Shown: positions 33,425 to 54,120, counted from the first letter of the stretch. The stretch: 64,000 nucleotides of DNA from Deltaproteobacteria bacterium CG11_big_fil_rev_8_21_14_0_20_47_16 (GCA_002796325.1 PCXA01000007.1:145780-209779); one strand, 5' to 3'. Translations and numbers: made by a program. Notes: generated from the letters alone by a model not told the origin.

Positions 33425-33467
33425 AAACGCCACGAGAGTTGATCGAAGGAGACCGCGTGGCGTTTTT
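33425..33467 (+). promoter_or_regulatory. Perfect 10-bp stem hairpin (AAACGCCACG / CGTGGCGTTT) with 21-nt loop and T-run, enclosing the aminotransferase RBS and start
   Basis: Read directly; loop holds GAAGGAG, stem holds the GTG start candidate at 33457. Confidence 0.5.
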
Positions 33468-34776
33468 GCATCCCCACATTAAAACCAAACTTCCCGGACC
33501 TAAATCCAAAAGGGTCCTGGCACTCGATGAAAAATACGTCTCACCGTCTTATACCCGTAGCTATCCTCTTGTTGCCAAAAGTGGTCGTGGGTCGTTTATT
33601 GAAGACATGGACGGCAACGTCTTTCTCGATTTTACATCCGGCATTGCAGTGACTGCGTCAGGCCATTGTCACCCACGTGTGGTAAAGGCGATTCAAGAGC
33701 AAGCCGCCAAACTCATTCACATGTCAGGCACCGATTTTTATTATCCCCAACAAGCAGAGCTTGCTAAGCGCCTGGTGAACCTGTTTCCTGGTGGAAAGGG
33801 CAGTGGTAAGGCATTCTTGACCAATTCGGGCGCAGAATCCGTCGAAGCCGCATTAAAGCTCGCCCGCTGGGTGACCAAACGTCCGCAGATCATTTCATTT
33901 TTGGGGGCTTTCCATGGGCGTACCATGGGCGCGTTGTCCGTGACTGGGAGTAAAATCACACAAAAGGAACGATTCTTTCCGCTCGTTCCAGGTGTGACGC
34001 ATGTGCCGTATCCGGATCCGTATCACACGCCCAAAGGGATGACACCGGATGACTATACCAACTTTTGTTTAGACTGGATTTCTGAACGCATTTTCAAAAC
34101 GATTGTGCCACCATCTGAAGTTGCTGCAATTATTGTCGAACCCATTCAAGGTGAGGGTGGATATATTGTCCCTCAAAATAGTTTCTTCAAAGGATTGCGC
34201 AAAATTTGTGATGCACACGGCATTTTGCTGATTGTTGATGAAGTACAAAGCGGAATTGGACGCACGGGCAAAATGTTTGCAATCGAACACACGGGTGTAA
34301 CACCGGATATTATTTGTATCGCCAAGGGCATTGCTTCAGGATTGCCGTTGGGTGCCATGATCGCGCGCGGGTCTATTATGCATTGGACAACCGGTGCACA
34401 CGCCAACACATTTGGGGGTAACCCTTTGGCCTGTGTGGCGGCAACCGCCACGTTGGATTTGTTAGATGAAGGCATGATGAAAAATGCGGCCAAGCAAGGT
34501 GAGTATTTGATGAAAAATTTGCAGGGCATGATGCGTCGCCACTCTGAAATTGGAGATGTGCGGGGCAGAGGCCTCATGGTGGGTGCTGAAATCGTGTCTG
34601 ACCGCAAACGTAAGACCCGCGCACCCAAACGGCGGAACGACATTGTCGATAAGGCGTTTCGCAAGGGGCTTCTGCTTTTAGGCTGTGGCCCCAATACCAT
34701 TCGGTTTGCGCCACCGCTTTCTGTGACGCGTGCCGAAGTGGATATGGCACTCAAAATATTTGAGGCATGTTTATGA
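33457..34776 (+). CDS. Class III PLP-dependent aminotransferase (GabT- or lysine-aminotransferase-like)
   Basis: KLPGPKS N-terminus and DEVQSGIGRTGKMFA lysine region; start is GTG 33457 or TTG 33439. Confidence 0.85.
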   Translation: MAFLHPHIKTKLPGPKSKRVLALDEKYVSPSYTRSYPLVAKSGRGSFIEDMDGNVFLDFTSGIAVTASGHCHPRVVKAIQEQAAKLIHMSGTDFYYPQQAELAKRLVNLFPGGKGSGKAFLTNSGAESVEAALKLARWVTKRPQIISFLGAFHGRTMGALSVTGSKITQKERFFPLVPGVTHVPYPDPYHTPKGMTPDDYTNFCLDWISERIFKTIVPPSEVAAIIVEPIQGEGGYIVPQNSFFKGLRKICDAHGILLIVDEVQSGIGRTGKMFAIEHTGVTPDIICIAKGIASGLPLGAMIARGSIMHWTTGAHANTFGGNPLACVAATATLDLLDEGMMKNAAKQGEYLMKNLQGMMRRHSEIGDVRGRGLMVGAEIVSDRKRKTRAPKRRNDIVDKAFRKGLLLLGCGPNTIRFAPPLSVTRAEVDMALKIFEACL

Positions 34777-36329
34777 AAGATAAAATCAGTTTATTATCGG
34801 GTAGCGTTGTTGAAACGGGCACCAAGACATTTACCTCTATCAATCCTGCCGACACATCAGACACAGTTGCCACATTTGCGCATGCCAGTCGTGACCAGGT
34901 GAAAGTCGCCTGCGAGCGTGCACGCAAAGCATTTGCCAGTTGGAAAAAAGTACCTGCACCGGTGCGAGCGGGCATTATTCAAAACTGGGGTCGCTTAATT
35001 GAATCCAACAAAGAAGCGTTATCGCAATTGGTGAGTCGCGAAATGGGCAAACCATTGCGCGAAGCGCGCGGCGATGTGCAAGAAGCGATTGATACATGCA
35101 ATTTTTTTGTGAGTGAAGGGCGCCGCTTGTATGGCATGACCGTTCCATCAGAGATGGCCAATAAAGAGTGTTATACCTATCGCCGTCCGATTGGCGTCTT
35201 TGGTTGTATTTCTGCTGGCAATTTTCCGGTTGCGGTGCCGTCCTGGTATTTTGTGCCGGCGTTACTCTGTGGCAACACCTGCGTGTGGAAGCCCTCGGAA
35301 GATTCACCACTGACATCCTACTACCTGACGCAACTATTGTACAAAGCAGGCCTGCCAGACGGCGTGTTTTCAGTCGTGTTTGGTTCGGGTGCCAAGGGGC
35401 CAGGGGAATATTTAATTGATGGCGTGAATGACGGATGGATCGACAAATTTGGATTTACGGGGTCTACTGAAGTTGGTCGCCATATCGGCGAAGTCTGCGG
35501 CAAAAATTTACAAACGCCGTGTCTAGAGCTGGGTGGCAAAAATCCTATGGTCGTCATGGACGATGCGGACTTGGAATTGGCCACGACGGGCGCGCTGTGG
35601 TCTGGATTTGGTACCGCTGGCCAACGCTGCACCAGTCTGGGTAATTTGATTCTTCATACTCAAATTCGCGAAAAATTTCTCGGCATGCTCATGAAAAAAC
35701 TGGCCGCCATGGTGATCGGCGATCCTGCGAACCCCACAATTACATATGGTCCCATGATCAGTGAAAAATTCATGAATGATCACTTACGTAATCTGGACAA
35801 GTTGGTTAGTAAAACCCATAAGCTTTTGACGACGCAAAATGGCCGTATTACAGAGAAGAATCCCTGGGCTAATTGGGTTGGGGAATCTCCTGACGATGGC
35901 TACTTTTGTTTTCCCACAATTGTGGACAATGTCACACCAGACGATGAAATTTATCGGACCGAAACGTTTGGTCCCATGTTCAATGTCATGACGTGCAAAA
36001 ATTTAGATGAGGCTATCCGGTTGGCAAATGGTACCGGTTACGGCCTCTCATCAGCCATTTACACGAACACACCGGCGTCCGTGTACCAGTGGAAGGAAGA
36101 CATCAACGCCGGGATGACGAGTATTAACAATTCAACCACGGGTGCTGAGGCCCATTTGCCCTTTGGGGGCAATGGGAAGTCCGGCAACGGGTCGCGCCAA
36201 TCCGGCGTATGGGTATTGGATCAATTCACACGGTGGCAGTCCGTGAACTGGGATATGAGTGGAAAACTGCAGCTGGCCCAAATGGATACCGGATATGTAA
36301 GCGCAGATCTAGAGTACCGCATTCCCTAA
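34773..36329 (+). CDS. NAD(P)-dependent aldehyde dehydrogenase
   Basis: LELGGKNP and FTGSTEVG motifs, catalytic Cys in GQRCTS; ATGA overlap with aminotransferase stop. Confidence 0.85.
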   Translation: MKDKISLLSGSVVETGTKTFTSINPADTSDTVATFAHASRDQVKVACERARKAFASWKKVPAPVRAGIIQNWGRLIESNKEALSQLVSREMGKPLREARGDVQEAIDTCNFFVSEGRRLYGMTVPSEMANKECYTYRRPIGVFGCISAGNFPVAVPSWYFVPALLCGNTCVWKPSEDSPLTSYYLTQLLYKAGLPDGVFSVVFGSGAKGPGEYLIDGVNDGWIDKFGFTGSTEVGRHIGEVCGKNLQTPCLELGGKNPMVVMDDADLELATTGALWSGFGTAGQRCTSLGNLILHTQIREKFLGMLMKKLAAMVIGDPANPTITYGPMISEKFMNDHLRNLDKLVSKTHKLLTTQNGRITEKNPWANWVGESPDDGYFCFPTIVDNVTPDDEIYRTETFGPMFNVMTCKNLDEAIRLANGTGYGLSSAIYTNTPASVYQWKEDINAGMTSINNSTTGAEAHLPFGGNGKSGNGSRQSGVWVLDQFTRWQSVNWDMSGKLQLAQMDTGYVSADLEYRIP

Positions 36330-36363
36330 TGGGACTTGTGCACCTGTAGAAACGAGTTTCACA

Positions 36364-37776
36364 ATGTTTGGTCGCTTAGCTGTAAATCGCGATCAGGTGG
36401 ACGAATGTCGCAATAAGGCGCGCCTTATTGCCGAGCATATCCGCAAGATTGCAGAACATCACACAACCCTATCTGTTGAACAAGCCACATTGCGTGCGTT
36501 GGGTGCAGCAGGGAATTCACCGCAACCCATCATTCATGCCATTGCCAAAAAACTCGGTCCACAGTCGCTTAAGCTAGGTGTGGCGGGTTGGTTGGGGCGC
36601 ATCATGGTGGCACACAAATTGTCTCCGGAAAAGGCAGCTCAATTTTTAGCGCATCATGGATTGGGTAAGCCTGATTCTTTAAAGGATGTCCCCTGGAGTC
36701 AGGCACAGCGGGTGGTGCGCGAGTCTTTTGATAAATGGTCACGTAGTTTGCCGAAGCGCAGCAATGGGCGCATGAGGAATGGACAGTTTCGAGTGGCGGT
36801 ACAGGTGGAAACGGGCGACGCTCAAAAAGATTTAGCGCAGCTTTACTCTGCTTGGAAGGAATCTGATTTGGCCGTGGTGCAGGTGCCATATGGTTTGTCG
36901 GCGGATGGTATTGCCTCTCAGCGAGGTGGATTTATTTTTAAGAAGGGTTATCCTTTGCAAAAACAGATGCGTCGGGCGGTAGCAAAAAATGGTTCCGACG
37001 AAAAGTTGGTTTGCTGGGCAGGGGCAATGGCGCCTGAAACCGCAGTTGTGGCCGCTGAAATCCCTAGAACTCGTATGCGTGTGGACCCGATTTCCCGCAT
37101 TCATCAGGAAAAGATGGATCCACGCAAGGCTGTTATCGAATACAATATGATTTTGCGATTGTCGGCACGCACAGGTCTGCGATTGCACAATAATTTACAA
37201 GCATGGACTAGTTCCGCGTACGAAACCCACTTTTATCAAGCGATAGCCATGCAAATTGTTCTAGAGCAGTGGCTTATGTATTATCGCGGTGAACCCGAAG
37301 CCCAAGTAATTGTCTTGCCTGAGATCGCATCTCAAAATGGGGTACCCGATTTGGTTTCTGCGTTGGCGCGTAATCAATTGTGTCGCGAAATTTTTCCCCA
37401 GTCTGAAATGTGGCAACACACAGATGCCCCAAGTGCTGCATGGGACTCTGGTGTTGCGGCTGTTATTGGTCAAAGTGGTGTGATGGTGCCACAGACTGTT
37501 GATCGCAAATCAATTGCTGCGCTAGGAGCGGTATTCAAGCCACTTGCGTATGAATGTCAATTCAGCGATCACGGTCAACTCAGTCGTCTAATGCATACAT
37601 TGCTCGATCGCAGTATGAAGGAATTGCTTCGCCTATATCGCAACACCTGGAGTAAAGTTGTTCAACAGGATCATAGTGGTTTATTTGCCATGTCCAAGTT
37701 CACACATGGCAGTGATACTGTAATTGAAAAGGATCGCCGTTACTGGAACCCAATGGAAGAATGGTTCGGAGGTTAA
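36364..37776 (+). CDS. Lysine 5,6-aminomutase alpha-subunit (KamD)-family protein, orphan
   Basis: N-terminal EHHTTLSVEQATLRALG, internal CREIFPQ and C-terminal KDRRYWNPM resemble KamD motifs as recalled; no B12-binding beta subunit adjacent. Confidence 0.5.
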   Translation: MFGRLAVNRDQVDECRNKARLIAEHIRKIAEHHTTLSVEQATLRALGAAGNSPQPIIHAIAKKLGPQSLKLGVAGWLGRIMVAHKLSPEKAAQFLAHHGLGKPDSLKDVPWSQAQRVVRESFDKWSRSLPKRSNGRMRNGQFRVAVQVETGDAQKDLAQLYSAWKESDLAVVQVPYGLSADGIASQRGGFIFKKGYPLQKQMRRAVAKNGSDEKLVCWAGAMAPETAVVAAEIPRTRMRVDPISRIHQEKMDPRKAVIEYNMILRLSARTGLRLHNNLQAWTSSAYETHFYQAIAMQIVLEQWLMYYRGEPEAQVIVLPEIASQNGVPDLVSALARNQLCREIFPQSEMWQHTDAPSAAWDSGVAAVIGQSGVMVPQTVDRKSIAALGAVFKPLAYECQFSDHGQLSRLMHTLLDRSMKELLRLYRNTWSKVVQQDHSGLFAMSKFTHGSDTVIEKDRRYWNPMEEWFGG

Positions 37777-37777
37777 T

Positions 37778-38704
37778 ATGTCCGGAGTTGGCATTATTTT
37801 AAATCCGCATTCGCGTAGTAACCGCCGCAATCCCGGTCGTGTCAGGCGTTTGGGGTTCATTGTAGGTGATAAAGGGTCGTGCCACGCGACCAAAGATATT
37901 TTGGATGTGGGGCGAATTGCGCAGCAATTTAAGGAGCGTAATGTAGAGATATTGGGGATTAGTGGTGGTGATGGTACCAATCATTGTACGTTGACGCGTG
38001 TGCTTCAAGTGTATGGCGACGCCAAGCTACCTAAAATTGCATTCCTACGTGGTGGGACCATGAATAATGTGGCAAATTGCATTGGAATCAAAGGAACGCC
38101 CGAGCAAATTTTAGCTAATTTGATTAGTAAGCATGACGCAGGTGAAGAATTTAAGACGGTTGAGCTGGATATGATGACTGTGAATGGAGAATATGGATTT
38201 TTGTTTGGTGTTGGTGTGGTGGAGCGCTTTATGGAACATTATTACCGAGTGAAGGGATCAATGGTTTGGGCGGGTGTTTTGCTTGCACGTTGCATTCTTG
38301 CGCAGATTTTTAGGACACCATTTATCGATGAAATGTTTGAACGCTTTGACTGTAAAATTGAAGTAGATGGTGAGGTGTGGCCGTATAAAAATTATAATAT
38401 CATCCATGCCGGAACGGTTGAAACCTATGGATTAGGTTTCGATCCCTTCTATCGTGCACGTGAAAGGGAAGGGCACACACATATTATCGGATCGTCTGTT
38501 TTGCCATCCGATATTGGTTGGTCGCTCCCTAAGATCTGGATGCGCAAACCCACAAACTGTGAAAATGAATTAAGTTCTGTGGCAAAGCGTGTTGTAATCA
38601 CGTTTTCTGAGCCTCAGCCATATTTTGTAGATGGGGATATCAAAGCACCTACCACCCGCATTGAAATATCCTGTGATAAGCGAATTAGTTGTATTGTGAG
38701 TTAA
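37778..38704 (+). CDS. DAGK_cat-family lipid kinase (diacylglycerol / sphingosine / ceramide kinase-like)
   Basis: GGDGT motif; GGAGG RBS; start 2 nt after KamD-like stop. Confidence 0.7.
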   Translation: MSGVGIILNPHSRSNRRNPGRVRRLGFIVGDKGSCHATKDILDVGRIAQQFKERNVEILGISGGDGTNHCTLTRVLQVYGDAKLPKIAFLRGGTMNNVANCIGIKGTPEQILANLISKHDAGEEFKTVELDMMTVNGEYGFLFGVGVVERFMEHYYRVKGSMVWAGVLLARCILAQIFRTPFIDEMFERFDCKIEVDGEVWPYKNYNIIHAGTVETYGLGFDPFYRAREREGHTHIIGSSVLPSDIGWSLPKIWMRKPTNCENELSSVAKRVVITFSEPQPYFVDGDIKAPTTRIEISCDKRISCIVS

Positions 38705-38706
38705 TC

Positions 38707-41283
38707 TTACTGAAAATCATACATCTCTATGCCGCGCTCGGGATTGGCGGCAAAGACAATGCTACCAGAAGAATCAATGTCGGTGAATTGACATTCGGAG
38801 CAGTTCTCTCCAAACCCGCCATCCAGATCCAAAAGGGCAGCAGGATGTAATCCGTTCGTGCCGTTTAATTGGACAAGGTAATGACCACCAGCTGACACTA
38901 CTTTTCCTGTGGGGGCATCAACTGCTTCCTTAAAGATATTGAAACCGATATCCAAAATACGTGTGGTGGTAGCGCTTTCAATCCAACGCAGGAAACCATT
39001 GGGGTGTAAGTTGATAAACGTGTTCTGAAGTCGAACAGCAGATAGGCCAGATGCAGTATCGGCTTGTGGAAGTGGTGTAATTTCACCAGTTGGATTACAT
39101 GAATTGATGTCGGGTGCCATTTGTGGGCTAACATGCATATTCATTAACCACACATTGTACGTAGGGTTATAATGTTGGAAGAATCCCCTTAGGACAAAGT
39201 CACCTGCTTGAGGATCTGGAACAACACTTAGGCGACCCAAAAATTGAGCTTGATCATTGAGCTTTCCATAGCTGGTATTCCATGAATAATTATTGTTGGG
39301 ATCAACGATATCGCTGCATCCTTGAATAGTTGCTACGCGATTGAACATGGAAGCTGCAGAAATGTCCATTTGTGCAACGATAACGCGATACCGATTGGCA
39401 ATACCGTCCCATCCATGAACTAAAATTGCAAGATGGTAGATATTGGGTAATGCAGGATTGGTAAATACTTTGATATCATCAACACGTTCAAACTCACCGT
39501 TAACTCCCATTCCGCTAAATGCTCCCAAGGTATATAGATCAAATATACCAGTTTTATTGGAAGCCTTACTTAGAGAAAAGGCCATGACGGCAGGACCCTT
39601 GATGGCAGTGCTGATATTGTCACCAGTAATGGTATCCTTATAGACCCTCACACGTGGTCCTAGTGTGCCATGGCGCACATCAAAGATGAGACCACCCGAG
39701 TGAAATAGTCTGGCATTATTAGCGTCTGCCACGGAGTCATTATCTTGAGCATTGACGATCGGAAATGATGCATAATCATCAGATACTGTACTCTGAAATA
39801 CAGTCGCGTTCTTGGCCGTGTCGTTATAGCTGACAGATCTATTGCCAATGTTCAGTACTTTTGTGATGGCGGTGTATGGTACAGTCGTTGGTTCCCCTAG
39901 ACCATTTTGATAGTCTTTGTGCTCCCAAATAGCCGTTGTGGGACCAGTTGGTAGAAACTGTGGTACTGTGACAATCGTCTTAACGCCTACGTTGATTTCG
40001 TCAGTAGTAGATCGCATTGTTGCACTACGAACATAATCAAAAGGTTGTTTGGTGGGCCACACAGACCATTTTTGTTGAGTTGGTCCGGCAAAAAAGTTGT
40101 CAACGCGCGCAATGCTGTCCAAGCCACGAATGAATGCTGTAGAAACAAAAGTGTCCATGCGCCCCATTCGGAAATCACCAAGTTTTGCAGGAATGCCAGA
40201 CCATAGGTTTGCGATTGGAGTGCCAATGGGTGTGTTATAAGTTGCAATACCACTTTCCAAAACGGTGGGTGCTGAGAGTTGATAGCTTGTGCCAAATAAG
40301 AATATGGCTGTGGAGGTAATGTTAATATCTGACGCAAAGAATCGATCAAACTTTCCAAGTTGCATCACAAATGGCTCAACAGGTGTCTGACGAGCAATAT
40401 CGATCAAATATGCAGTTGATTGAAATGACAGCCATTCGTTTTGTAATGCCAGCTTGAACTGATCTGCACTTACAAATTCTTCTGGTAATCGTGATGACGT
40501 TAAGAATGCAGCTAATGTACTATCTGCTACAACTTTAGTGGGATGAAAGAGGCGTTTATCCTTGGCATTTGCAGGATCCACAGGATGATCCTTGGCTTGA
40601 TACGCAACAAACATGCAGCCAAACCCCAATTGAAGATCAGAAAGCTTTGCAATGAGTACGTTGTCATCAGCCACCATGTAGACCATTTCAGTAGGCTGCT
40701 CTCCTGCAGATAAAATTTGGTTTTTGGCAGTGGCAACGGATCGGATGCGCGTGATGGCATCTACGGACTTTTGGGATACAACTGAAAATGAATTCCCATT
40801 GTAATTCAGGCCAATAATATCGAGACCGCCGTCTGTTCCAACAAGCACTGTTGGATTGCTCGCATTTCCAGTAATAATAATGCTGCGGATCATGTTGTGG
40901 GTAGTCAAGGAAAGCGAATCACCAATATGTAATTTCCGTCCCTCATTCCATACCGGAATATAGCCAGAGAGTTGCTTGATGATGGCATATGCTGTTGTGG
41001 TTCCACCCCAGCTTTTACGATAGGCCCGCTGCATGGCAGTAGTGGCATATGTGGTTAAACTGACGGGGTTACCTGTTGTAATGTCTGAAAAGGCCCATTG
41101 TCCTGGGAGAGTGCCACATTCAGAGACCTTGGTGACGTTGCCAACGGCAGGGGCCTCAATAGTGGTAGGAGTAATGGTCGTTGTCGGGTTTTCAGGCGTT
41201 ATGTCGCCACTGCCGCCACATGCAGTCAAAAGTGTGGCAGTTAACAGTGTAAAAATAAAGGGTTTTTTAATAAGATCCCCCAT
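38707..41283 (-). CDS. Large (858 aa) lipoprotein, no recognisable domain
   Basis: Lipobox LLTACGGS; GGAGG RBS; Thr/Asn/Gly-rich, beta-rich composition. Confidence 0.6.
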   Translation of the reverse strand: MGDLIKKPFIFTLLTATLLTACGGSGDITPENPTTTITPTTIEAPAVGNVTKVSECGTLPGQWAFSDITTGNPVSLTTYATTAMQRAYRKSWGGTTTAYAIIKQLSGYIPVWNEGRKLHIGDSLSLTTHNMIRSIIITGNASNPTVLVGTDGGLDIIGLNYNGNSFSVVSQKSVDAITRIRSVATAKNQILSAGEQPTEMVYMVADDNVLIAKLSDLQLGFGCMFVAYQAKDHPVDPANAKDKRLFHPTKVVADSTLAAFLTSSRLPEEFVSADQFKLALQNEWLSFQSTAYLIDIARQTPVEPFVMQLGKFDRFFASDINITSTAIFLFGTSYQLSAPTVLESGIATYNTPIGTPIANLWSGIPAKLGDFRMGRMDTFVSTAFIRGLDSIARVDNFFAGPTQQKWSVWPTKQPFDYVRSATMRSTTDEINVGVKTIVTVPQFLPTGPTTAIWEHKDYQNGLGEPTTVPYTAITKVLNIGNRSVSYNDTAKNATVFQSTVSDDYASFPIVNAQDNDSVADANNARLFHSGGLIFDVRHGTLGPRVRVYKDTITGDNISTAIKGPAVMAFSLSKASNKTGIFDLYTLGAFSGMGVNGEFERVDDIKVFTNPALPNIYHLAILVHGWDGIANRYRVIVAQMDISAASMFNRVATIQGCSDIVDPNNNYSWNTSYGKLNDQAQFLGRLSVVPDPQAGDFVLRGFFQHYNPTYNVWLMNMHVSPQMAPDINSCNPTGEITPLPQADTASGLSAVRLQNTFINLHPNGFLRWIESATTTRILDIGFNIFKEAVDAPTGKVVSAGGHYLVQLNGTNGLHPAALLDLDGGFGENCSECQFTDIDSSGSIVFAANPERGIEMYDFQ

Positions 41284-41378: not shown

Positions 41379-41927
41379 CTACTTTGCCATTTTGCGTGCC
41401 CAGTTACCCACCGCAATGGAAGCAGCAGCATAGAGTAGCGGAAGCCACATGGGGATTCTGAGAAAGTCAGGATAGGTGTAGTGGAATTCACCAATGTAGC
41501 TCAGTGTGCTTTCAATGGTGCAGCCAATAATGACTGTAATAACAAGGGGTGGAATTGCGTGCCAACTTCGGTTCCAACGCCATGCCATCAGAAACACCAA
41601 AATACTCAGAACAATGGTTTTGCCAAAATCCGAATAAGATAGAAAAGCACTTGCGGCATATACCATGAGAAAAGCAATCAATCCGGTGACGACCTCGGAC
41701 CACGACAGATTTTTTGAGGAGACGTGAAAGACACGATCATAATATAAATGACCATAAGCAACTGCAAGTGTTGCAGATCCAAACAAAATTGGAACCCACC
41801 ACGCCGTATTTAGGATCCAAGGATCAGTGTAATATAAAATGCCAGAGATATTGTGGAAGCCATCAGAAATGGCACCGGCGATTCCGCCAATGACAAACAT
41901 TATGATGGCGCGTTTCCATGTCAACAT
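41379..41927 (-). CDS. Hypothetical integral membrane protein
   Basis: Five or six hydrophobic helices; immediately downstream of murU-like gene. Confidence 0.5.
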   Translation of the reverse strand: MLTWKRAIIMFVIGGIAGAISDGFHNISGILYYTDPWILNTAWWVPILFGSATLAVAYGHLYYDRVFHVSSKNLSWSEVVTGLIAFLMVYAASAFLSYSDFGKTIVLSILVFLMAWRWNRSWHAIPPLVITVIIGCTIESTLSYIGEFHYTYPDFLRIPMWLPLLYAAASIAVGNWARKMAK

Positions 41928-41929
41928 GA

Positions 41930-42658
41930 CTATGACCTCATGTGTACCGGGTTTAAGCGAATAATACCGTCTAAAATATCAATGCGGGTCTTTTCGTATC
42001 GTTCAATAGTGCCAATATCGTTCCAATATCCAGTATGACAAATAGTGTCAAAAATCGCACCACTTGCAATAAGTGGTTTGTAACCATCGTTGATCACGGA
42101 TGATTCACCGTCTGGTAGTTGAGCAATGAGTCTTGGCGTGACAATTTGGACGCCTGCAAAAGTGACATCACCTTCACCAAATCCTGTGAGACGTCCATTG
42201 TCTGCAACACTCACAAGGCCATAATTATCTTCTGCTGAAACAGGGCAGGTGACCATAAGGCCTGCATGTTCGGGATTAAATGCTGCTATAACCGTTTTTA
42301 AATTGATGCCCATGAGTGTGTCGGCATTGATCGCAATGAATGGTTTATCTTCAAAAAATGGTGCTGCCTTCTTGAGTCCACCACCACTTCCTAAAATAGT
42401 GGGTTCTTCAGAATATGAAATACGCATTCCCCATTGGGATCCATCACCACAATACTCTGAGACTTGCTCACCTAAATAATGCAGATTGATTATGACATCA
42501 CGAATGCCCGCCGTTTGCAGTAGGCCTAGGCTATAGGCAATAAGTGGATGACCATCCATGGGAAGCATGGGTTTGGGTGTGCTATCGGTGAGTGGACGCA
42601 ACCGCGTTCCAAACCCAGCAGCAAGGAGCATAGCTTTGGTAATAGTCATGACTGCCAC
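41930..42658 (-). CDS. murU: Sugar-1-phosphate nucleotidyltransferase, MurU-like
   Basis: LLAAGFGTRLRPLTDSTPKPMLP nucleotidyltransferase motif; paired with AmgK-like kinase. Confidence 0.7.
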   Translation of the reverse strand: MAVMTITKAMLLAAGFGTRLRPLTDSTPKPMLPMDGHPLIAYSLGLLQTAGIRDVIINLHYLGEQVSEYCGDGSQWGMRISYSEEPTILGSGGGLKKAAPFFEDKPFIAINADTLMGINLKTVIAAFNPEHAGLMVTCPVSAEDNYGLVSVADNGRLTGFGEGDVTFAGVQIVTPRLIAQLPDGESSVINDGYKPLIASGAIFDTICHTGYWNDIGTIERYEKTRIDILDGIIRLNPVHMRS

Positions 42659-43680
42659 TCCGGGACATATGGGGTGAGTAGTGCCAGCAATTCAGGTCCG
42701 TCGTTAATTCGGTTTAATGCATCGCGAGCGTATCCCAGTGAAGTAGGAATAAATTCTAGGTAGTTGGGGTTTCCCTTAACGCGATCAATATATACAAAAC
42801 GTCCTGCATCTTTTAACTTGCGCTGCACAGTCACCAAATCAAAAGCACTTTGTACTTCTAAAAGAGGCATGTCCCGTAATGCTGCATATTGACCTATCAA
42901 CTTTTGCAAGACATCTGCAGATAAGGTGACGTAAGAATCGCGCAACAATGCGACCAGATCGTAAATATAAGGTCCACGAAGGGCATCCTGAAAGTCAATC
43001 ACTACAAGTGAGTCATTTTGGATGAGGATGTTCCGACTCTGATAATCACGGTGGGTAAATCCGTATGGGAGCTCGGTGATGGCCTTAGTAATACGATTTG
43101 TAATTGCTCTACATTCCTTTTGAACTTTTTCAGGTAGCGCTTCATTACGTCGTGCATCAATTGCCCATTCAATAAAGTGGGCAAATTCCCAGTTAAGCAA
43201 GGTGGCATCGAATGAACGCTGTAGGGCGATACATTCATGCGGACGTGCGGTGCCACATTGTGCCTGAATGGTTGAGAGTAAATCAACAGCCTTCCCATAC
43301 CAGAATAATTTGTCTGTATCTGAGGTTTGCGCAACCTTGGTGTAAAGTAATGTGTCGCCACAATCTTCAAGTAACATCATGCGAAGATCAGGGCTAAAGA
43401 ATATAATGTCTGGGACGGGAATTGCGTTTGATTTTAAAAATCTTTGAACATTCTGAAATGGGGTTTCTTCGATCGTCCCAGAAAAATTGGTAATTTCTTC
43501 AGATGCACTTGCCTTACCCTCTGGCAGTTGCATGACAATGTAGCTTCGACCATCTTTTAGGAATAATCGATAGTAGGTGCGATACGAGGCATCACCATGC
43601 AATTTAGTAATGGATTCAACTGTTGGTGCTTCTGCAAATGCTTCACTTAATAAGTGTGTGATTTTAGTGTCAGTAGTCAT
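42646..43680 (-). CDS. amgK: Aminoglycoside-phosphotransferase-fold kinase, AmgK-like (anomeric MurNAc/GlcNAc kinase)
   Basis: HRDYQSRNILI catalytic loop and IDFQDA; overlaps murU-like start. Confidence 0.65.
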   Translation of the reverse strand: MTTDTKITHLLSEAFAEAPTVESITKLHGDASYRTYYRLFLKDGRSYIVMQLPEGKASASEEITNFSGTIEETPFQNVQRFLKSNAIPVPDIIFFSPDLRMMLLEDCGDTLLYTKVAQTSDTDKLFWYGKAVDLLSTIQAQCGTARPHECIALQRSFDATLLNWEFAHFIEWAIDARRNEALPEKVQKECRAITNRITKAITELPYGFTHRDYQSRNILIQNDSLVVIDFQDALRGPYIYDLVALLRDSYVTLSADVLQKLIGQYAALRDMPLLEVQSAFDLVTVQRKLKDAGRFVYIDRVKGNPNYLEFIPTSLGYARDALNRINDGPELLALLTPYVPEWQS

Positions 43681-43724
43681 GTGGCCGCTATTAGCGGGCC
43701 GCAGGGACAAATGCAACGATGCAA

Positions 43725-44129
43725 TTATGGTGTAATTGTCATTTGTTTGTCAGCATTGCTCAGGTTGGTAATGACAAGTACGGCAATGTTCTGAAGACCT
43801 AATGGGGCATCTGCGGGAATGACAAAAGTGAGGGTTTCACCAGCACTTGCAACCCCATACTGAATGCCAGTGGTTTGCACTGAATCAGCATTGGTACCCA
43901 CCATAACAATGTCAAACGCCTCAAGCGTTGAAAATCCGATACCTGTGAGCGTGACTGTGTCTCCGCGGGCTGCAGTTGTTGGGCTAATTGAAAAAATGAG
44001 TGGTGGTTCCAGGCCTGTTGGTATGCTGGGGTCGACATCAGTTGTAACTGTATCTGCACCCACTTGGGCACCACCACATCCAGATATGAAGAGCAGACCC
44101 AAGATTAGCAATGGTTTGAGATGTTTCAT
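43725..44129 (-). CDS. IPT/TIG-domain lipoprotein
   Basis: Lipobox LLFISGCGG; Ig-like PTTAARGDTVTLTGIGF. Confidence 0.55.
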   Translation of the reverse strand: MKHLKPLLILGLLFISGCGGAQVGADTVTTDVDPSIPTGLEPPLIFSISPTTAARGDTVTLTGIGFSTLEAFDIVMVGTNADSVQTTGIQYGVASAGETLTFVIPADAPLGLQNIAVLVITNLSNADKQMTITP

Positions 44130-44161
44130 TGCGATGACGGTATCTCGAGAAATAAGGGGAG

Positions 44162-44764
44162 TCAACAGTTTGAAGAACCTGGATGTTTTGCCACGGGCAA
44201 GATGCCTTCTTGTACTAAAACATCACGCAGCCGCTGGTCGCCAGTTGCTAAAAAGCGCTCATAGCATTCTAAAAGATTAATATCAGTCAAGTTGCGGCCT
44301 GCCTTACCAACGTCGTTTACAACATCTACTAAATGACGAAACTTAATGCCCATCTCTTCAAAAACCTCCGAAAATCCACGCTGTCCCGGCATGGACGAGG
44401 CTAGGGTAAGGTAAGCACCACCGCCCATTCGGATATAATAGTCGAGTGTTTTAAAGCGACGAGTGGCACGTTCAGGAAAAATGCCAGCCACAAACAGGGC
44501 GTTATCTCCCAAAAACTTAAGGGTACGAACCCGTGTTGCGGTATCCCCATGGACGGCGCGTTCTAGCAGCAATGCCAGAGGTGTGTCTTCTGGTTGACCA
44601 CCAACACAATCAAATGCCTTGTCTGTTTTTTTGAGCTCAGAGAGTAGATTGACGATATAGAATTCGCTGTCTTCGGTGAGCGAGATCTTATGTTTTACAA
44701 TGGCCCTTCGGACGAGGTCCCTAAAGAATGACAACAGACTACTGTTTTCAACGACATCTGCCAT
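44162..44764 (-). CDS. Hypothetical cytoplasmic protein (200 aa)
   Basis: Codirectional ORF with no recognisable motif; heads the amgK-murU gene string. Confidence 0.45.
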   Translation of the reverse strand: MADVVENSSLLSFFRDLVRRAIVKHKISLTEDSEFYIVNLLSELKKTDKAFDCVGGQPEDTPLALLLERAVHGDTATRVRTLKFLGDNALFVAGIFPERATRRFKTLDYYIRMGGGAYLTLASSMPGQRGFSEVFEEMGIKFRHLVDVVNDVGKAGRNLTDINLLECYERFLATGDQRLRDVLVQEGILPVAKHPGSSNC

Positions 44765-44805
44765 ACTGCTAAATTTTAAAGATTATTTGCCCTAGTGTCA
44801 ATTGG

Positions 44806-46137
44806 CTAATTGGCAGGGGGGGTGGGAGGGGTCTTGGTCGCGGGCGCCGCCACTGTGGGAGGTGTTTCGAGGAGGTAGCGATAACTATCCGCCAAACTAT
44901 GATACAGATTACGGGTTCCCATCAAACGTGCCAAGAGATAGGCAATGAGTGCAGCTAACATGATGGGTAGGAGCATTTGGTGATGTCCTGTCATTTCAAA
45001 AATAATAACAAAAGCGGTCATGGGTGCTTGAATGGCACCCGATAGGAAAGCGGCCATACCAATCATGGCACAGGCGCTAATTGGTGCGTTTAGCCAATGA
45101 CCCATATTGGCGCCTAACGCTGCGCCCATGGATAAGGATGGTGCAAAGATGCCTCCCGCAATTCCTGACCAATAGGTAAACAAAGTGGCACCCATTTTAG
45201 TCCAGGGGAAAATGAAGACCCAATTGTCATAATCACCATTTACCAAACGTTGGGCGGCTTCGTTACCAGGGCCTAGCACGTTGGGGCCACTAATGGTGGC
45301 AAGACCCAGAAGCGCAAATGACAAAATGACAATCAATATGATTTGGGATCGACGGCTATAGAAGAGGCTCAGTACTCGGCGACCATTGAGGAGTGCAGCA
45401 GCAAATAGAATTCCGGCTAAACCAGAAAACACGCTAACGGCCAAGATCGCGTCCAAACGAATAGCGGGTGGGTCTGCGAGTTTACCAAAATAGGTGTAGT
45501 CGCCGGTAAATGTTTTGGCGGCAATGGCTGCAATAATGATAGACATGAGCACCACATCTTTAATGCTGCCAAAATATTCGGGCATGAGTTCTTCAATGGC
45601 AAATGTTACTCCAGCCAGTGGGGTATTAAACGCGGCGGCTAAACCAGCTGCGCCACCCGCTACCACTGCTGATTTCATGTCAAAGTTCAAACCTAAGAAA
45701 CGTCGGAACAAAAGTAAAATGCCTACAAAGACGCAGGCAGCCACATGGACGGTTGGGCCTTCACGGCCGGTTGATGCACCGGCCCAAATAGCAATGTAAA
45801 GAGCGAGTATTTTAACAACGAGTGTCTTAAATGATGTGAGCGGTGCAAGCTTATGCTGGTTATGCACTGTTGCATGTTCGGCCGCAAAAACGGCTTGTGG
45901 GATACCAGCGCCTGCTGCACAAGGTGCTAACCAGCGAATCATGGTAACGCTGATAATGAACAATATGGGGGTGGTAAGCCATGCCCAGTAGCCAATATGC
46001 CAAAAATCCAATCGTTCATAGATGACCGCATCAAACCCAAGCATGAATAAAACGCAGGCGACCCCGGTAATTGCAGCCGCAGTTAAATAGCCAAACAGGG
46101 TTAAGCCATAGCGATGTTTGAGGAACTCTTTAAACAT
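44806..46137 (-). CDS. ClC-family chloride channel / H+-Cl- antiporter
   Basis: GREGP and GIAGGIFAPSL selectivity motifs. Confidence 0.85.
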   Translation of the reverse strand: MFKEFLKHRYGLTLFGYLTAAAITGVACVLFMLGFDAVIYERLDFWHIGYWAWLTTPILFIISVTMIRWLAPCAAGAGIPQAVFAAEHATVHNQHKLAPLTSFKTLVVKILALYIAIWAGASTGREGPTVHVAACVFVGILLLFRRFLGLNFDMKSAVVAGGAAGLAAAFNTPLAGVTFAIEELMPEYFGSIKDVVLMSIIIAAIAAKTFTGDYTYFGKLADPPAIRLDAILAVSVFSGLAGILFAAALLNGRRVLSLFYSRRSQIILIVILSFALLGLATISGPNVLGPGNEAAQRLVNGDYDNWVFIFPWTKMGATLFTYWSGIAGGIFAPSLSMGAALGANMGHWLNAPISACAMIGMAAFLSGAIQAPMTAFVIIFEMTGHHQMLLPIMLAALIAYLLARLMGTRNLYHSLADSYRYLLETPPTVAAPATKTPPTPPAN

Positions 46138-46143
46138 GATGGG

Positions 46144-47145
46144 TTATTGTTCAGTATTCATATCGGTGGTTGCTGGTGGTTCAAAAAGATCCTTGGATAC
46201 CCGTGTTAGATAAAATGCACCGACGATGGCCTTAAGTAACATGTTTCCGAAAATCCATAGCAAGCTAGAGCTGAGAATGATGGCTGCAGCTGTGAGTTCG
46301 CCACTGGCAATTAATGGTGACTGTACACTGTTTTGCAGCAGTTCAATGAGTGCACTATTGGTGATTCCCAATCCGCTTGGGCTAATGGGTAAAATTCCCA
46401 AAATAAAAGCAATTGGAGTGGCCCCAAGAACGGTCAAAAATGGGGCATGTGCATTGTAGGTGAGTAGTACGACATACATACAAGAAATAATGCTGGCATG
46501 CACGGGAGTGCGCATCAATGCCATTTTGGCATAGTCGCTAAGATGCGCTTCATGGAAGATCCGAAGAAACTTCTTTTGACGCAACCATTGGGTGACGCGC
46601 CATGGCTTGTTACTCCAGTAGTGCCAGTAGAAAAGATGTAAGATAAGTGCAACGGCAGCAAAGGCACCAAACCCACGTACTGTAGGACCCAAGTGCACGC
46701 CACGAATTTGAAAGTCCTCAAAGAAGGATCCTAAAACTGCCATTCCGATTAGCCAGTATAGATCTACAAGCGCTACGAAGGCAAATGTGCCCAGAACTTC
46801 CCATATGGGAATTTGCTTAGTGCGCTTTAAGTAATAGGCGAAGGCGCCTTGGCTGGCACCGTAATTGAGAATCATGATGAGATAAGTGACAGCGCGTGCG
46901 GGCATGAGTTCTTTAAAGCTAATGGGATGATGGAATCTAGACAGTACTGCAGAGAATGCCCAGTTATCCAACGCAAAGACAAAGAAGAAATAGAAAAGCG
47001 AAAAACCAGAAAACCACAATAAATTTGCGTGTTTAGCGGCGTTTATGAGGGAGGAGATAGGGTAGCTGTGGAAGAGCCAAGCAAAGATTCCAATGGCGAC
47101 TGCCCAAGGTCCAACCAATTTGAATATGTGAATTATGCGTTTCAT
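46144..47145 (-). CDS. Lysylphosphatidylglycerol-synthase-TM-like (flippase-like, UPF0104) membrane protein
   Basis: Polytopic membrane protein; family by recall; start uncertain (47145 preferred because 47292 sits inside a terminator hairpin). Confidence 0.55.
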   Translation of the reverse strand: MKRIIHIFKLVGPWAVAIGIFAWLFHSYPISSLINAAKHANLLWFSGFSLFYFFFVFALDNWAFSAVLSRFHHPISFKELMPARAVTYLIMILNYGASQGAFAYYLKRTKQIPIWEVLGTFAFVALVDLYWLIGMAVLGSFFEDFQIRGVHLGPTVRGFGAFAAVALILHLFYWHYWSNKPWRVTQWLRQKKFLRIFHEAHLSDYAKMALMRTPVHASIISCMYVVLLTYNAHAPFLTVLGATPIAFILGILPISPSGLGITNSALIELLQNSVQSPLIASGELTAAAIILSSSLLWIFGNMLLKAIVGAFYLTRVSKDLFEPPATTDMNTEQ

Positions 47146-47297
47146 TGTTTTTTCTAAGCAACTTTTTCCGTAACCAACCGATAACCTACATGAGTGAGGA
47201 TGAATACAAAAAAACACCAAAAGTAAATGACTTGGTGGGGCACGGGGGAAGGAGATACGCCCCATCCCATAATCCCCCACTCCTTCTCCCAAACAAA

Positions 47298-47332
47298 ACG
47301 CCTTCGCTTATGCGAGGGCGTTTTTGTTTTTT
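47298..47332. terminator. Intrinsic terminator downstream of proC
   Basis: ACGCCTTCGC-ttat-GCGAGGGCGT stem followed by T-rich run on both strands. Confidence 0.55.
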
Positions 47333-47334
47333 CA

Positions 47335-48147
47335 CTATTCGAGCTCCTGAGCACGTTGGATAGCGGCAGCGACTGTTTCAGAAAGAATGTCGGCACAGTC
47401 ACTACTGTTCAAATGTTTTAATCCCTCAATTGTAATACCACCTGGTGAGCTAACTTCATGAATCAGCTCAGGGAGGGTGGCGTATCTCTTTTGTGCTAAC
47501 AAGCTGGCGCCTGAGAATGTTTGGAGTGTCAGATCGGTTGCTAGTTTTTCTGCAAGACCTGCTCTTGTGCCGGCTTTGATGAATGCTTCCATCAGCCAAA
47601 ATACAAATGCAGGACCCGATCCAGCAAGTGCCATAACGGCGTTGGCTTGGGATTCCGGAACTTCGGCAACAGTACCCACGGCCTCACACAAACGCAGTAC
47701 CCATTGCTTTTGTGCATTTGTACAGATGGGGTCAAAGCTGACAGCTTGGGCTGCCATGCCGATACGTGCCGCAGTATTACTCATCACACGTACGACAGGG
47801 ACATCCTTGCCAATCGTTTCCTTAATTTTAGCGATTGAGGCACCTGTTGCGAGCGAAATAATCAGGTGCTTGTCAGTAATGCGATCTGATATTTCCGTTA
47901 GTACGCTGGTAAGATCAATGGGTTTAACCGCCAAGATGATTGTGTCAGATGTGTCAACCACATCTGAGTTGGTTCGTGTTGCCAATATTTGAAAGTCATG
48001 GTGCAACCGCTGTTGGCTTGTACTTGTTTTGGTATGCACAACAATATGTTGAGGCGGACATATTTTTTTGGCCAGAACGCCTGCAATAAATACGGTAGCC
48101 ATTTTGCCACCACCGATAAATCCAATTTTGTGACTATGGTTGGTCAT
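47335..48147 (-). CDS. proC: Pyrroline-5-carboxylate reductase
   Basis: IGFIGGGKMA Rossmann motif and C-terminal dimerisation region. Confidence 0.9.
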   Translation of the reverse strand: MTNHSHKIGFIGGGKMATVFIAGVLAKKICPPQHIVVHTKTSTSQQRLHHDFQILATRTNSDVVDTSDTIILAVKPIDLTSVLTEISDRITDKHLIISLATGASIAKIKETIGKDVPVVRVMSNTAARIGMAAQAVSFDPICTNAQKQWVLRLCEAVGTVAEVPESQANAVMALAGSGPAFVFWLMEAFIKAGTRAGLAEKLATDLTLQTFSGASLLAQKRYATLPELIHEVSSPGGITIEGLKHLNSSDCADILSETVAAAIQRAQELE

Positions 48148-48159
48148 ATATCCTCCAAT

Positions 48160-51081
48160 TTATTTTTCTAGCATTTCTGGTGCAAATCCACGTCTCATCG
48201 TGTTTTCCGAAATGTTGCGTGGTTCCATAAATTGCAGCAAGTAATCTGGACCACCTGCTTTACTACCCACACCTGACAACTTAAATCCACCAAAAGGGTG
48301 GCGGTGCACAATGGCGCCGGTGCACGGACGATTGATATATAAATTACCCACATTAAAATCACGTTTAGCGATTTCAATGTTGATCGGTGAGCGCGAATAG
48401 ACACCGCCTGTCAATGCGAACGGCGTACCATTTGCAATAGCAATGGCGTCTTCAAATGTTTTAACTTTAATGATGGCAAGGACGGGTCCAAAAATTTCCT
48501 CTTGGGCAATGCTGTGGTCAGGTTTCACATCAGTAAAGATGGTAGGTGGTACAAAATATCCATCTGTTGGAACGCTTCCCTGATAAATCATGTGTGATTG
48601 TTGGCTTCCCTTTTCGATGTAACTCAATATTTTTGTCTGTGCGTCGTGATCAATCACGGGTCCCATGACGGTTTCTGGAACTATGGGGTCACCAATGACC
48701 ATACTCTTTGTGGCATCCACCAATCGTTCCACAAAGCGGTCATAATTTTCTTCCAGCACAATAGCGCGTGAGCAGGCAGAACATTTCTGTCCCGAAAATC
48801 CAAATGCGGATTTTAAAACACCTGCTACCGCTTCATCCAAATCAGCATCCGCATCGACGATAATGGCATTTTTACCACCCATCTCAGCAACGATGCGTTT
48901 GACGTGATCTTGCTGGGCTTCAAAATGATTGGCATGTTGAATGATGGACAGTCCCACTTCACGCGATCCTGTGAATGTCACAAATGAAGTATGACTATTT
49001 TCTACTAAATAGTTTCCAACCACTGATCCCTTACCCGGTAAAAAATTTAAAACACCATCGGGTAGGCCCGCTTCTGTGAAGAGCGCCATGAGTTGCGTGC
49101 CAACAATCGTGGATTGTTCAGACGGTTTATAAATAATACAATTACCCGTCACAAGTCCTGCGGCCACCATGCCCATCGAAATAGCGAGTGGAAAATTCCA
49201 TGGTGCAATGACGACACCGACACCTTTGGGAATGTAGTGATACCAGTTGGTTTCACCTGGAACACTGCCGCTCATATCACCAGAAGCGATGCGCTCCATC
49301 TCTTGTGCGTAATAGCGTAGAAAATCGATCGCCTCGCAGACATCGGCATCTGCTTCAGCCCAGGGTTTACCCACTTCTAATACTTGCATTGCGGATAGCT
49401 CGAATCGTCGTGATTCTGCAATGTCTGCGGCATTGCGCAAAATAGTGGCACGTTCTTTTACTGGAACATAGCGCCACGTTTGAAATGCCTTCTGTGCGGC
49501 AGCAATGGCTTGGTCGGCATGCATCGTATCGGCCATCGCATAGGTGCCAATGATTTGGTCGGGATGTGTGGGATTGACAGAGGTATTGCGTGTCTTACTA
49601 TCAATTGATTTTCCCCCAATGATGAGCGGATAGTGTCTGCCCAATTGGGATTTTACGCTTCGCAATGCTGCGATCATTTTGTCACGTTGATTGGCATCCC
49701 CAAAATCAGCCACAGCGATGTTGGCAAAGCTTGTATGGGGGGGTGTCCACGACTTATTCTTTGCAACGGGTGTAGCAAGTAACGTATCGATACTGGTCTC
49801 GTCAGCAAAACTCATTTTAAGCCAGGATTCATTTGATGTATTTTCAAGCAATCGTCTTACTAGATACGCCATGCCGGGAATAAGTGCGCCAACCGGTGCG
49901 TATTCACGTACCTGATATCCCATTTGAATAATGGCCTGCTTGATGGGTTCTGCCATGCCGAAGAGTGTTTGAAATTCAAACGCGTTGGCATCAAGCCCGC
50001 AGTCTTTGGCGCAGACCATTGCATGTGCAATACTGCGGACATTGTGACTTGCAATGGCGGCGCCCACATAAGTATTATTTTGCAAGAGTAGGGCGGTGAT
50101 GCGTTCAAAACTTGCATCCGTGTCAGCTTTGTTAATGAATACGGGACATGGCCAATCTTTCTGTGAGGCGTTCAAGGCTTCGTAATCCCAGTAGGCACCC
50201 TTTACCAATCGTACCGTGATGCGGACGTTCTGTTCTTTTGTCCATGCGATGAGATCTGCCACATCACGTTCGGTGTCACGCAGGTAAGCCTGCATCGCAA
50301 TGCCCGCAAGGGTATAGCCCGCCATGCTGGGATCACTCACCACATCTTTGAATGCCTGTAGCGTTACAGCTTTGTGCGCGTAGCTTTCCATATCCAAGTT
50401 GATGAAAACGCCCAATTCTTTGGCCAATTGAAATATGGGCAAGAGTCGTTTTTTCAATTCTGAAACAGTGTGGTCAAATGCAGCAGGATTAATTTGCGAG
50501 TATATCGCAGATAGTTTGACAGATACGTTAAGAGGTTTGCGAATTTTTTCAGCAGATTTCCATTTGGGAACTTCAGCATGCAATGTGCGAATGATATTTA
50601 AATACTCATTTTGGTAATGGCGCGACTCTGTTTCTGATAATGCCGCTTCGCCCAAAATATCAACAGTGAATGCATAACCATTGTCTGTGATTTTATGGAG
50701 ACCTTTGAGTGCATCATTTGCATTTTCACCCACAATAAATTGGCGCGCCATTTGTTCGATGTTTTTCTTAATGGCAGTGCCCGCAATTTTGGACCCAATC
50801 CCTGTTGCGGCAATGGACCCAATGCCCCACTGAAAAAATGGAGGCAGCTCCTGACCATCCCCCATAAAATATTCTTTCAGGTGTTTGCCGACTTGTTCGG
50901 AAGAGTTCAAATAGGGAAGGACGTCAACAAAGCGAAACAGAGAAACTTTGAATTCGGGTTTTTGCATGGCCCAATCCATCATTTTTCCAGTCCACCAACT
51001 TTTATCGAAGATGGATGCCTTTTGGCCCTTCATGGCATCCAAAATGCGCTTACCTGTTTCGAAAATCTGATCTTGTGACAT
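48160..51081 (-). CDS. putA: Bifunctional proline dehydrogenase / L-glutamate-gamma-semialdehyde dehydrogenase
   Basis: 973 aa; N-terminal PRODH barrel and C-terminal ALDH; no N-terminal ribbon-helix-helix DNA-binding domain. Confidence 0.9.
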
Positions 51082-54044: not shown

Positions 54045-54120
54045 TGGTGGACAGGGAGGGAATCGAACCCCCGACACGAGGATTTTCAATCCTCTGCTCT
54101 ACCGACTGAGCTACCTGTCC
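54045..54120 (-). tRNA. tRNA-Phe (anticodon GAA)
   Basis: Hand-folded cloverleaf: acceptor GGACAGG/CCTGTCC, D-arm GCTCAGTCGGTAGAGC, anticodon loop TTGAAAA, T-arm GGGGGTTCGATTCCCTC, encoded CCA; 76 nt. Confidence 0.9.

Follow-up and report, generated by a model that had tools for sequence, protein, structure and literature searches.

We analyzed a gene cluster in a 64,000-nucleotide (nt) stretch of the genome of Deltaproteobacteria bacterium CG11_big_fil_rev_8_21_14_0_20_47_16 (GCA_002796325.1, PCXA01000007.1:145780–209779); this whole stretch is called the window below, and positions are counted from its first letter. From position 44764 to 41379, the minus strand of the window carries five head-to-tail open reading frames (ORFs), among them the genes of an AmgK-like kinase and a MurU-like nucleotidyltransferase, which, judging from sequence comparisons, are probably a pair of N-acetylmuramic acid (MurNAc) salvage enzymes in a new operon context. 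The initial annotation of this DNA had proposed a five-gene cluster around such a pair, and all of its ORFs were recovered where it had placed them; gene calls made independently on metagenome contig JGI 3300004208 (JGI, Joint Genome Institute) gave the same five genes, those of the lipoprotein, kinase, and nucleotidyltransferase again starting with ATG. From upstream to downstream, the genes are as follows (aa, amino acids; TM, transmembrane):

44162–44764, minus strand: gene 1, a 200-aa soluble all-helical protein, clade-specific partner of the enzyme pair
43725–44129, minus strand: gene 2, a 134-aa lipoprotein (MKHLKPLLILGLLFISGC...) with a single Ig-like domain of the IPT/TIG type
42646–43680, minus strand: gene 3, a 344-aa APH-fold kinase, AmgK-like (family of anomeric kinases of MurNAc and N-acetylglucosamine, GlcNAc)
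41930–42649, minus strand: gene 4, a 239-aa minimal sugar-1-phosphate nucleotidyltransferase, MurU-like
41379–41927, minus strand: gene 5, a 182-aa INSIG-family protein with six TM segments

The stop codon of the kinase gene overlaps the ATG of the nucleotidyltransferase gene (ATGA, −4 nt), in agreement with the translational coupling claimed earlier for this pair, and the nucleotidyltransferase stop is followed after 2 nt by the ATG of the 182-aa gene. The gaps further upstream were 32 nt between the 200-aa gene and the lipoprotein gene and 44 nt between the latter and the kinase gene. Alternative TTG starts at 44165 and 43716 would extend the lipoprotein from 134 to 146 aa and the kinase from 344 to 356 aa, respectively. 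These short or overlapping gaps indicate that the coupling of the kinase, nucleotidyltransferase, and membrane protein genes is real. A further gene lies on the same strand, 95 nt downstream of the 182-aa gene:

38707–41283, minus strand: probable gene 6, an 858-aa lipoprotein with the lipobox LLTAC and without a recognizable domain

Thus, the operon comprises at least five genes and probably extends to this sixth one.

The kinase contained an APH domain (Pfam, E = 5e-19) and matched both AmgK models of NCBIfam over their full length: NF045759 with 116.9 bits (equivalog cut-off 550) and NF045698 with 85.7 bits (cut-off 500). None of the non-AmgK kinase families of NCBIfam gave more than 26 bits. 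The sole relative found in the PDB was 3csv (32% identity), with which the motifs HRDYQSRN (catalytic loop HxDxxxxN) and IDFQD (metal-binding DFxD) of the kinase were aligned. Some homologues with 54% identity to the kinase are labelled “N-acetylmuramate 1-kinase” by JGI.

The nucleotidyltransferase is a single-domain protein, in which the Pfam domain NTP_transferase (E = 2e-30) spans residues 8–225. Its best NCBIfam match was the MurU model NF045761 (174 bits, cut-off 250), followed by a mannose-1-phosphate guanylyltransferase model (132 bits); a second MurU model, NF045697, gave 85.9 bits (cut-off 370). Homologues from the same clade scored 154 bits on the MurU model. The best PDB matches were the MurU chain 4y7t (E = 1e-34) and 8hhd, also labelled as MurU (E = 3.6e-31). 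The N-terminal nucleotide-binding signature GxGxR...K was present, LAAGFGTRLRPLT...TPKP of the window protein being aligned with LAAGKGERMRPLT...TPKP of 4y7t. Identity to 4y7t was 36% overall; the nucleotide-binding half reached 50%, the C-terminal sugar-binding half 22%. The initial annotation had called for a check of active-site residues in both enzymes; catalytic motifs were found in the alignments with 3csv and 4y7t.

The two proteins classify closest to AmgK and MurU, these being by a clear margin their best-matching families in NCBIfam and the PDB. The AmgK and MurU of Caulobacter, which were validated genetically, are 30.1% and 36.6% identical, respectively, to the enzymes of Pseudomonas aeruginosa (PMC13046382). 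The identity of the window enzymes to the reference enzymes falls within the 30–37% span, as it does for these validated orthologues. The NCBIfam cut-offs are narrow, since the 3csv fragment (best NCBIfam match: the second AmgK model) scored 121.6 bits on NF045759, since the second MurU model gave 117.7 bits for the 4y7t fragment of MurU, and since the Caulobacter enzymes themselves show the identities given above. Similarity equal to that of accepted orthologues supports family membership, which by itself does not prove specificity for MurNAc.

The two upstream genes lie outside the described salvage pathway, as had been noted before. In the product of gene 2, the lipobox residues Cys18-Gly19 follow a hydrophobic N-terminal stretch and are invariant in seven homologues. 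The designation “IPT/TIG lipoprotein” of the initial annotation can therefore be kept in its second part, owing to the invariant cysteine; its first part corresponds to a weak Pfam TIG match just under the cut-off (19.4 bits against 20.9, E = 1e-3), which recurs in the homologues.

Synteny was analyzed in related loci of uncultivated “Deltaproteobacteria”: close relatives of the window (L064, L070, and L071), a wider clade (L067/68/69, L073, and L074/75), and locus L072. The genes of the TIG lipoprotein, kinase, and nucleotidyltransferase were contiguous in nine of the nine related loci, with the 200-aa gene upstream in eight of them; gene calls for the TIG lipoprotein and kinase overlapped by 4 nt in L064, L070, L071, L073, and L074. 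L072 retains the TIG, kinase, and nucleotidyltransferase genes only and lacks the 200-aa gene, and in L067 and L073 one or two genes have been inserted between the 200-aa and TIG genes. The full order of 200-aa protein, TIG lipoprotein, kinase, nucleotidyltransferase, INSIG-like protein, and ~850-aa lipoprotein was found in L064, L070, and L071, where identity to the window proteins was 64–69% for the kinase and 46–63% for the INSIG-like protein. In these three loci and in the window, the INSIG-like gene starts −4 to +2 nt from the nucleotidyltransferase stop. The wider clade shares a block of FtsJ, LPG_synthase_TM, ~200-aa protein, TIG lipoprotein, kinase, and nucleotidyltransferase genes without the INSIG-like gene (identity 51–54% for the kinase, 31–47% for the 200-aa protein, 31–38% for the TIG lipoprotein, and 42–44% for the nucleotidyltransferase). 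Co-conservation of the flanking genes with the pair, as expected from the initial annotation, was therefore found for the two upstream genes across the clade, to a kinase identity of about 52%; for the INSIG-like gene, it is confined to the sublineage of the window. A gene call of L072 that appeared to fuse TIG and APH domains (P0248, L072:8001–9383, 460 aa) was rejected as a real fusion: its TIG C-terminus is read in a frame different from that of the rest, probably through a frameshift artefact of the assembly.

Two lipid-related genes accompany the cluster in the window and in several relatives:

46144–47265, minus strand: a 373-aa LPG_synthase_TM protein, MprF flippase-like (Pfam PF03706, E = 4e-14)
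37778–38704, plus strand: a DAGK_cat lipid kinase, convergent neighbour (Pfam DAGK_cat in precomputed calls)

In L067, L071, L073, and L074, the LPG_synthase_TM gene immediately precedes the 200-aa gene; in the window, a ClC gene (44806–46137) intervenes, with gaps of 6 nt between LPG_synthase_TM and ClC and 41 nt between ClC and the 200-aa gene. A DAGK_cat gene was found near the pair in L064, L067, L070, L073, and L074 (40–77% identity).

The product of gene 5, which the initial annotation had taken for an uncharacterized polytopic membrane protein and possibly a transporter, is a six-TM protein of the INSIG family, as indicated by sequence profiles and a structural model. A sequence search of the PDB gave vertebrate Insig-2 (E = 5e-14) and mycobacterial MvINS (E = 5e-7), and a profile built from 53 relatives matched human Insig-2 at residues 31–212 (E = 2.6e-37) and MvINS (E = 5e-24). 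The best NCBIfam match was the MvINS-based “diacylglycerol-binding protein” (E = 3e-11, under the cut-off). The protein itself also fell under the gathering threshold of Pfam INSIG PF07281 (13.8 bits against 28); of the 53 family members, 50 matched this Pfam family at E ≤ 1, the best of them at E = 6e-19. Six hydrophobic segments were found by a hydropathy scan and six helices in the AlphaFold2 (AF2) model (predicted local distance difference test, pLDDT, 97.2), for which Foldseek gave significant PDB matches only to MvINS (TM-score 0.87–0.89) and Insig-2 (0.72–0.75). All sequence and fold relatives being INSIG proteins, the transporter assignment was rejected.

In the alignment with Insig-2, Phe115 corresponds to the near-invariant Phe86 of the window protein, and the motifs AWWVP and PDF are common to both. 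Asp149 of Insig-2, which is needed for Scap binding, corresponds to Asn119 here (Asp in most of the bacterial family), and Thr136 to Val106. The conserved intramembrane residues Asp22, His25, and Glu139 are shared by the bacterial family including MvINS and are missing from Insig-2. Among the genes annotated in the surrounding ~20 kb, none resembled Scap or HMG-CoA reductase.

The bacterial family to which gene 5 belongs is large. When 1.84 billion representatives were searched with a sensitive method, 619 INSIG-like cluster representatives were found at E ≤ 1e-3, and a genome scan gave 59 INSIG-like loci (L005–L063; 22–42% identity) in Myxococcota, Chloroflexota (Ktedonobacteria), Bdellovibrionota, Nitrospirales, Binatia, and metagenome-assembled genomes of Acidobacteriota. 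The neighbours of the INSIG-like genes vary by lineage, with tetratricopeptide repeat (TPR) proteins in some loci and assorted genes in others. Another conserved linkage, distinct from that in the window, was seen in 17 of the 59 loci (e.g., L033:8428–9714), where the INSIG-like gene is followed, in the same orientation, by an overlapping gene of a ~428-aa Cys/Met-metabolism pyridoxal phosphate (PLP) enzyme.

A promoter scan found its best site of the region immediately upstream of the 200-aa gene:

44773–44801, minus strand: sigma-70-like promoter candidate, TTGACA–17 nt–TAAAAT (11 of 12 positions match)

In total, however, the region contained no more promoter-like sites than expected by chance. 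Among the three relatives aligned, both hexamers were found in register in L064 and L070 despite diverged flanks and were not found in L071. The rank of this site and the recurrence of its hexamers in L064 and L070 indicate that the transcription unit probably starts at the 200-aa gene. The end of the −10 element lies 8 nt ahead of the ATG of this gene, a spacing that implies a very short leader or none. No Shine–Dalgarno sequence is visible before the 200-aa gene in the window; the leaders of L064 and L071 are longer and contain GGAGG. The transcript of the window may be leaderless. Rfam and tRNA scans revealed no RNA element within or near the operon.

Considering these data, we assign a probability of about 55% to an operon built on an AmgK-type kinase and a MurU-type uridylyltransferase that make uridine diphosphate (UDP)-MurNAc, with clade-specific accessory genes and an INSIG-like add-on. 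In this pathway, the kinase would phosphorylate MurNAc, and possibly GlcNAc, with ATP to the sugar α-1-phosphate, and the uridylyltransferase would convert MurNAc α-1-phosphate and UTP to UDP-MurNAc, a salvage shortcut bypassing MurA and MurB. Genes 1 and 2, for the helical cytoplasmic protein of 200 aa and the small lipoprotein with the IPT/TIG-type domain, are clade-specific accessory genes moving with the pair. Two genes would have been added in the sublineage of the window: that of the six-helix INSIG-family protein, which is coupled to the 3′ end of the MurU-like gene, and that of the large lipoprotein. The enzyme pair itself is of a known kind; the operon context is new because of the conserved accessory genes and the INSIG-like add-on. 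If the pair is a true AmgK–MurU system, the fosfomycin-bypassing salvage route would reach an uncultivated groundwater lineage, and two accessory proteins would be flagged as travelling with the pair in that lineage.

Several observations weigh against this interpretation. Both enzymes scored below the NCBIfam equivalog cut-offs (116.9 against 550 and 85.7 against 500 for the kinase; 174 against 250 and 85.9 against 370 for the nucleotidyltransferase), and the sugar-binding half of the nucleotidyltransferase is just 22% identical to that of MurU 4y7t; for these two reasons, MurNAc is a specificity that we infer. Pfam lists spanning most of the 64-kb window contained no other peptidoglycan-recycling gene (anmK, mupP, nagZ, ampG, or ampD). 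A homologue of the kinase or nucleotidyltransferase was encoded in none of the 59 INSIG-like loci of other phyla (flanks up to 8 kb), so the linkage of INSIG and the pair is an innovation of the window's sublineage. The long-range gene order CysS–IspF–IspD–CarD–FtsJ–LPG_synthase_TM–200-aa–TIG–kinase–nucleotidyltransferase is kept across the clade, and with such long housekeeping collinearity, part of the co-conservation may be inherited gene order and not functional linkage.

It is possible, if rather unlikely, that the pair activates another sugar and that the resulting nucleoside diphosphate (NDP)-sugar feeds a clade-specific envelope glycoconjugate or glycolipid pathway, in which the LPG_synthase_TM protein, the TIG lipoprotein, the INSIG-like protein as a lipid binder, the 858-aa lipoprotein, and the DAGK_cat kinase would take part. 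Such a pathway would be consistent with the scores of both enzymes under the equivalog cut-offs, with the low identity of the sugar-binding half to MurU, and with the mannose-1-phosphate guanylyltransferase score of 132 bits against 174 for MurU. Recycling genes missing from the Pfam lists would also fit, as would the persistent envelope- and lipid-related neighbours, of which we found no mention in the AmgK/MurU literature consulted. However, no glycosyltransferase is encoded within the cluster, AmgK and MurU are simultaneously the best matches of two adjacent genes, adjacency being a hallmark of the salvage pair, and the similarity equals that of validated orthologues from different classes.

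The flanking genes could also be neighbours by descent only, an ordinary amgK–murU pair sharing its transcript with unrelated 200-aa, lipoprotein, INSIG-like, and 858-aa genes; we regard this as unlikely. The window and L074 share the order of more than 10 unrelated housekeeping genes, the 200-aa and TIG genes are not adjacent in L067 and L073, L072 lacks the 200-aa gene, and the neighbours of INSIG-like genes are unrelated in the 59 other loci, all of which would agree with mere descent. At the same time, the TIG, kinase, and nucleotidyltransferase genes stay contiguous, with 4-nt overlaps of the calls, despite rearrangement around them (PutA–ProC, ClC, and other insertions), and the distance between the nucleotidyltransferase stop and the INSIG-like start remains at most 4 nt even where INSIG identity has dropped to 46–63%; both facts speak for linkage. 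The specificities that could have replaced AmgK and MurU scored far below them: a choline kinase with a LicC-type cytidylyltransferase (a Kennedy-like pathway) was rejected as the primary interpretation with 15.9 bits for Pfam Choline_kinase against a cut-off of 29 and a match of LicC chain 1jyk to the first ~77 residues only of the nucleotidyltransferase (E = 2e-13), and a GlmU-like enzyme with just 25.7 bits in NCBIfam.

Within the salvage operon, a role of the INSIG-like protein can be proposed by analogy. The INSIG-fold proteins that have been characterized act as lipid-binding partner subunits, as seen for MvINS (bound diacylglycerol), FigP (SpoVAF), and Insig (Scap), and we speculate that gene 5 encodes a lipid-binding membrane partner or regulator, not a sugar transporter. 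That it was recruited as a partner of the sugar-activating pair, tethering or gating the formation of UDP-MurNAc (or another UDP-sugar) in response to a lipid signal from the membrane, for example diacylglycerol or a polyprenyl carrier, is highly doubtful. No operon partnership of INSIG with sugar-activating enzymes was found in the papers searched. If true, gating of this kind would be the bacterial equivalent of the lipid feedback exerted by INSIG, acting here on envelope precursor supply, and the first functional handle on the large bacterial INSIG-like family. To our knowledge, bacterial INSIG homologues have no established function, and MvINS is uncharacterized in vivo. The translational coupling of an INSIG-like gene to a defined enzyme pair gives the family a concrete, testable context.

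By sequence, the bacterial INSIG-like family is nearer to eukaryotic Insig-2 than MvINS, the sole solved bacterial homologue, is: 119 of the 157 members scored (close homologues and best-scoring representatives) had higher scores against human Insig-2 than against MvINS. No eukaryotic INSIG was found among the top 150 representatives, and a whole-word search of the available literature gave no text naming INSIG together with Myxococcota. These bacterial proteins may be relevant to how eukaryotic INSIG and the sterol-sensing machinery arose. Some of its members exceed the usual ~180–200 aa, namely P0045 (375 aa) and P0056 (342 aa). In P0087, a 3012-aa protein from a JGI metagenome, an INSIG-like segment occupies residues 319–485 (E = 3e-14); its JGI name, acyl-CoA synthetase/HEAT repeat/dienelactone hydrolase, points to a possible fusion to lipid-metabolism domains.

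Regarding the genes downstream of the five, the 858-aa lipoprotein had no match in Pfam, NCBIfam, or the PDB. Its homologues follow the INSIG-like gene in L064, L065, L066, L070, and L071 (36–46% identity), and weak similarity (E = 3e-4) connects it with an 839-aa neighbour in the wider clade, with which it shares an FDRF..DI motif and a C-terminal C..CQF.D motif. The DAGK_cat gene belongs to a convergent block (33439–38704) kept across the clade, which also encodes a 470-aa Lys-AminoMut_A homologue, an aldehyde dehydrogenase, and a class-III aminotransferase; the block of L074 additionally has B12-binding/OAM_dimer and radical-SAM LAM_C genes. This gene content suggests a lysine aminomutase/degradation cluster.

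Upstream of the operon, two insertions distinguish the window from other clade members: the ClC chloride channel gene at 44806–46137, between the LPG_synthase_TM and 200-aa genes, and an FKBP–PutA–ProC segment at 47335–51081, between FtsJ and LPG_synthase_TM. Between proC and the LPG_synthase_TM gene, a strong 13-bp GC-rich hairpin flanked by A-runs and T-runs (47295–47324) resembles a bidirectional terminator and would mark a transcript boundary upstream of LPG_synthase_TM. The sole structured RNA detected in the window was a tRNA-Phe (GAA) at 54045–54120 on the minus strand.

Among known systems, FigP (YqhR) of Bacillus subtilis is an INSIG-fold membrane protein that is thought to bind a lipid and to serve as a partner subunit of the SpoVAF channel, not as a transporter (PMC10903944). 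Gene 5 resembles it in encoding a bacterial INSIG-fold membrane protein; it differs in organism and context, no SpoVAF-like gene being found here. With the INSIG family proper (Insig-1/2 and MvINS, PDB 4XU4), the window protein shares the six-TM fold and a full-length profile match, and it departs from the family in scoring under the Pfam INSIG and NCBIfam cut-offs and in having Asn at the position of Asp149 of Insig-2.

The AmgK–MurU salvage pair is known from Pseudomonas putida and P. aeruginosa and was also validated in Caulobacter, Tannerella, and Legionella. Like that system, the window has adjacent, coupled genes of an APH-fold kinase and a minimal (~230–240 aa) sugar-1-phosphate nucleotidyltransferase, both with their catalytic motifs, and the best hidden Markov model (HMM) and PDB matches of both proteins are to AmgK and MurU. 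Unlike it, the window pair stays below the equivalog cut-offs, has a poorly conserved sugar-binding half, and has no anmK or mupP nearby. The locus also differs in its setting: the pair is accompanied by the helical 200-aa protein and the TIG lipoprotein and, in the window's sublineage, also by the INSIG-like protein and the large lipoprotein of 858 aa. We found no mention of these four proteins in the AmgK/MurU literature consulted.

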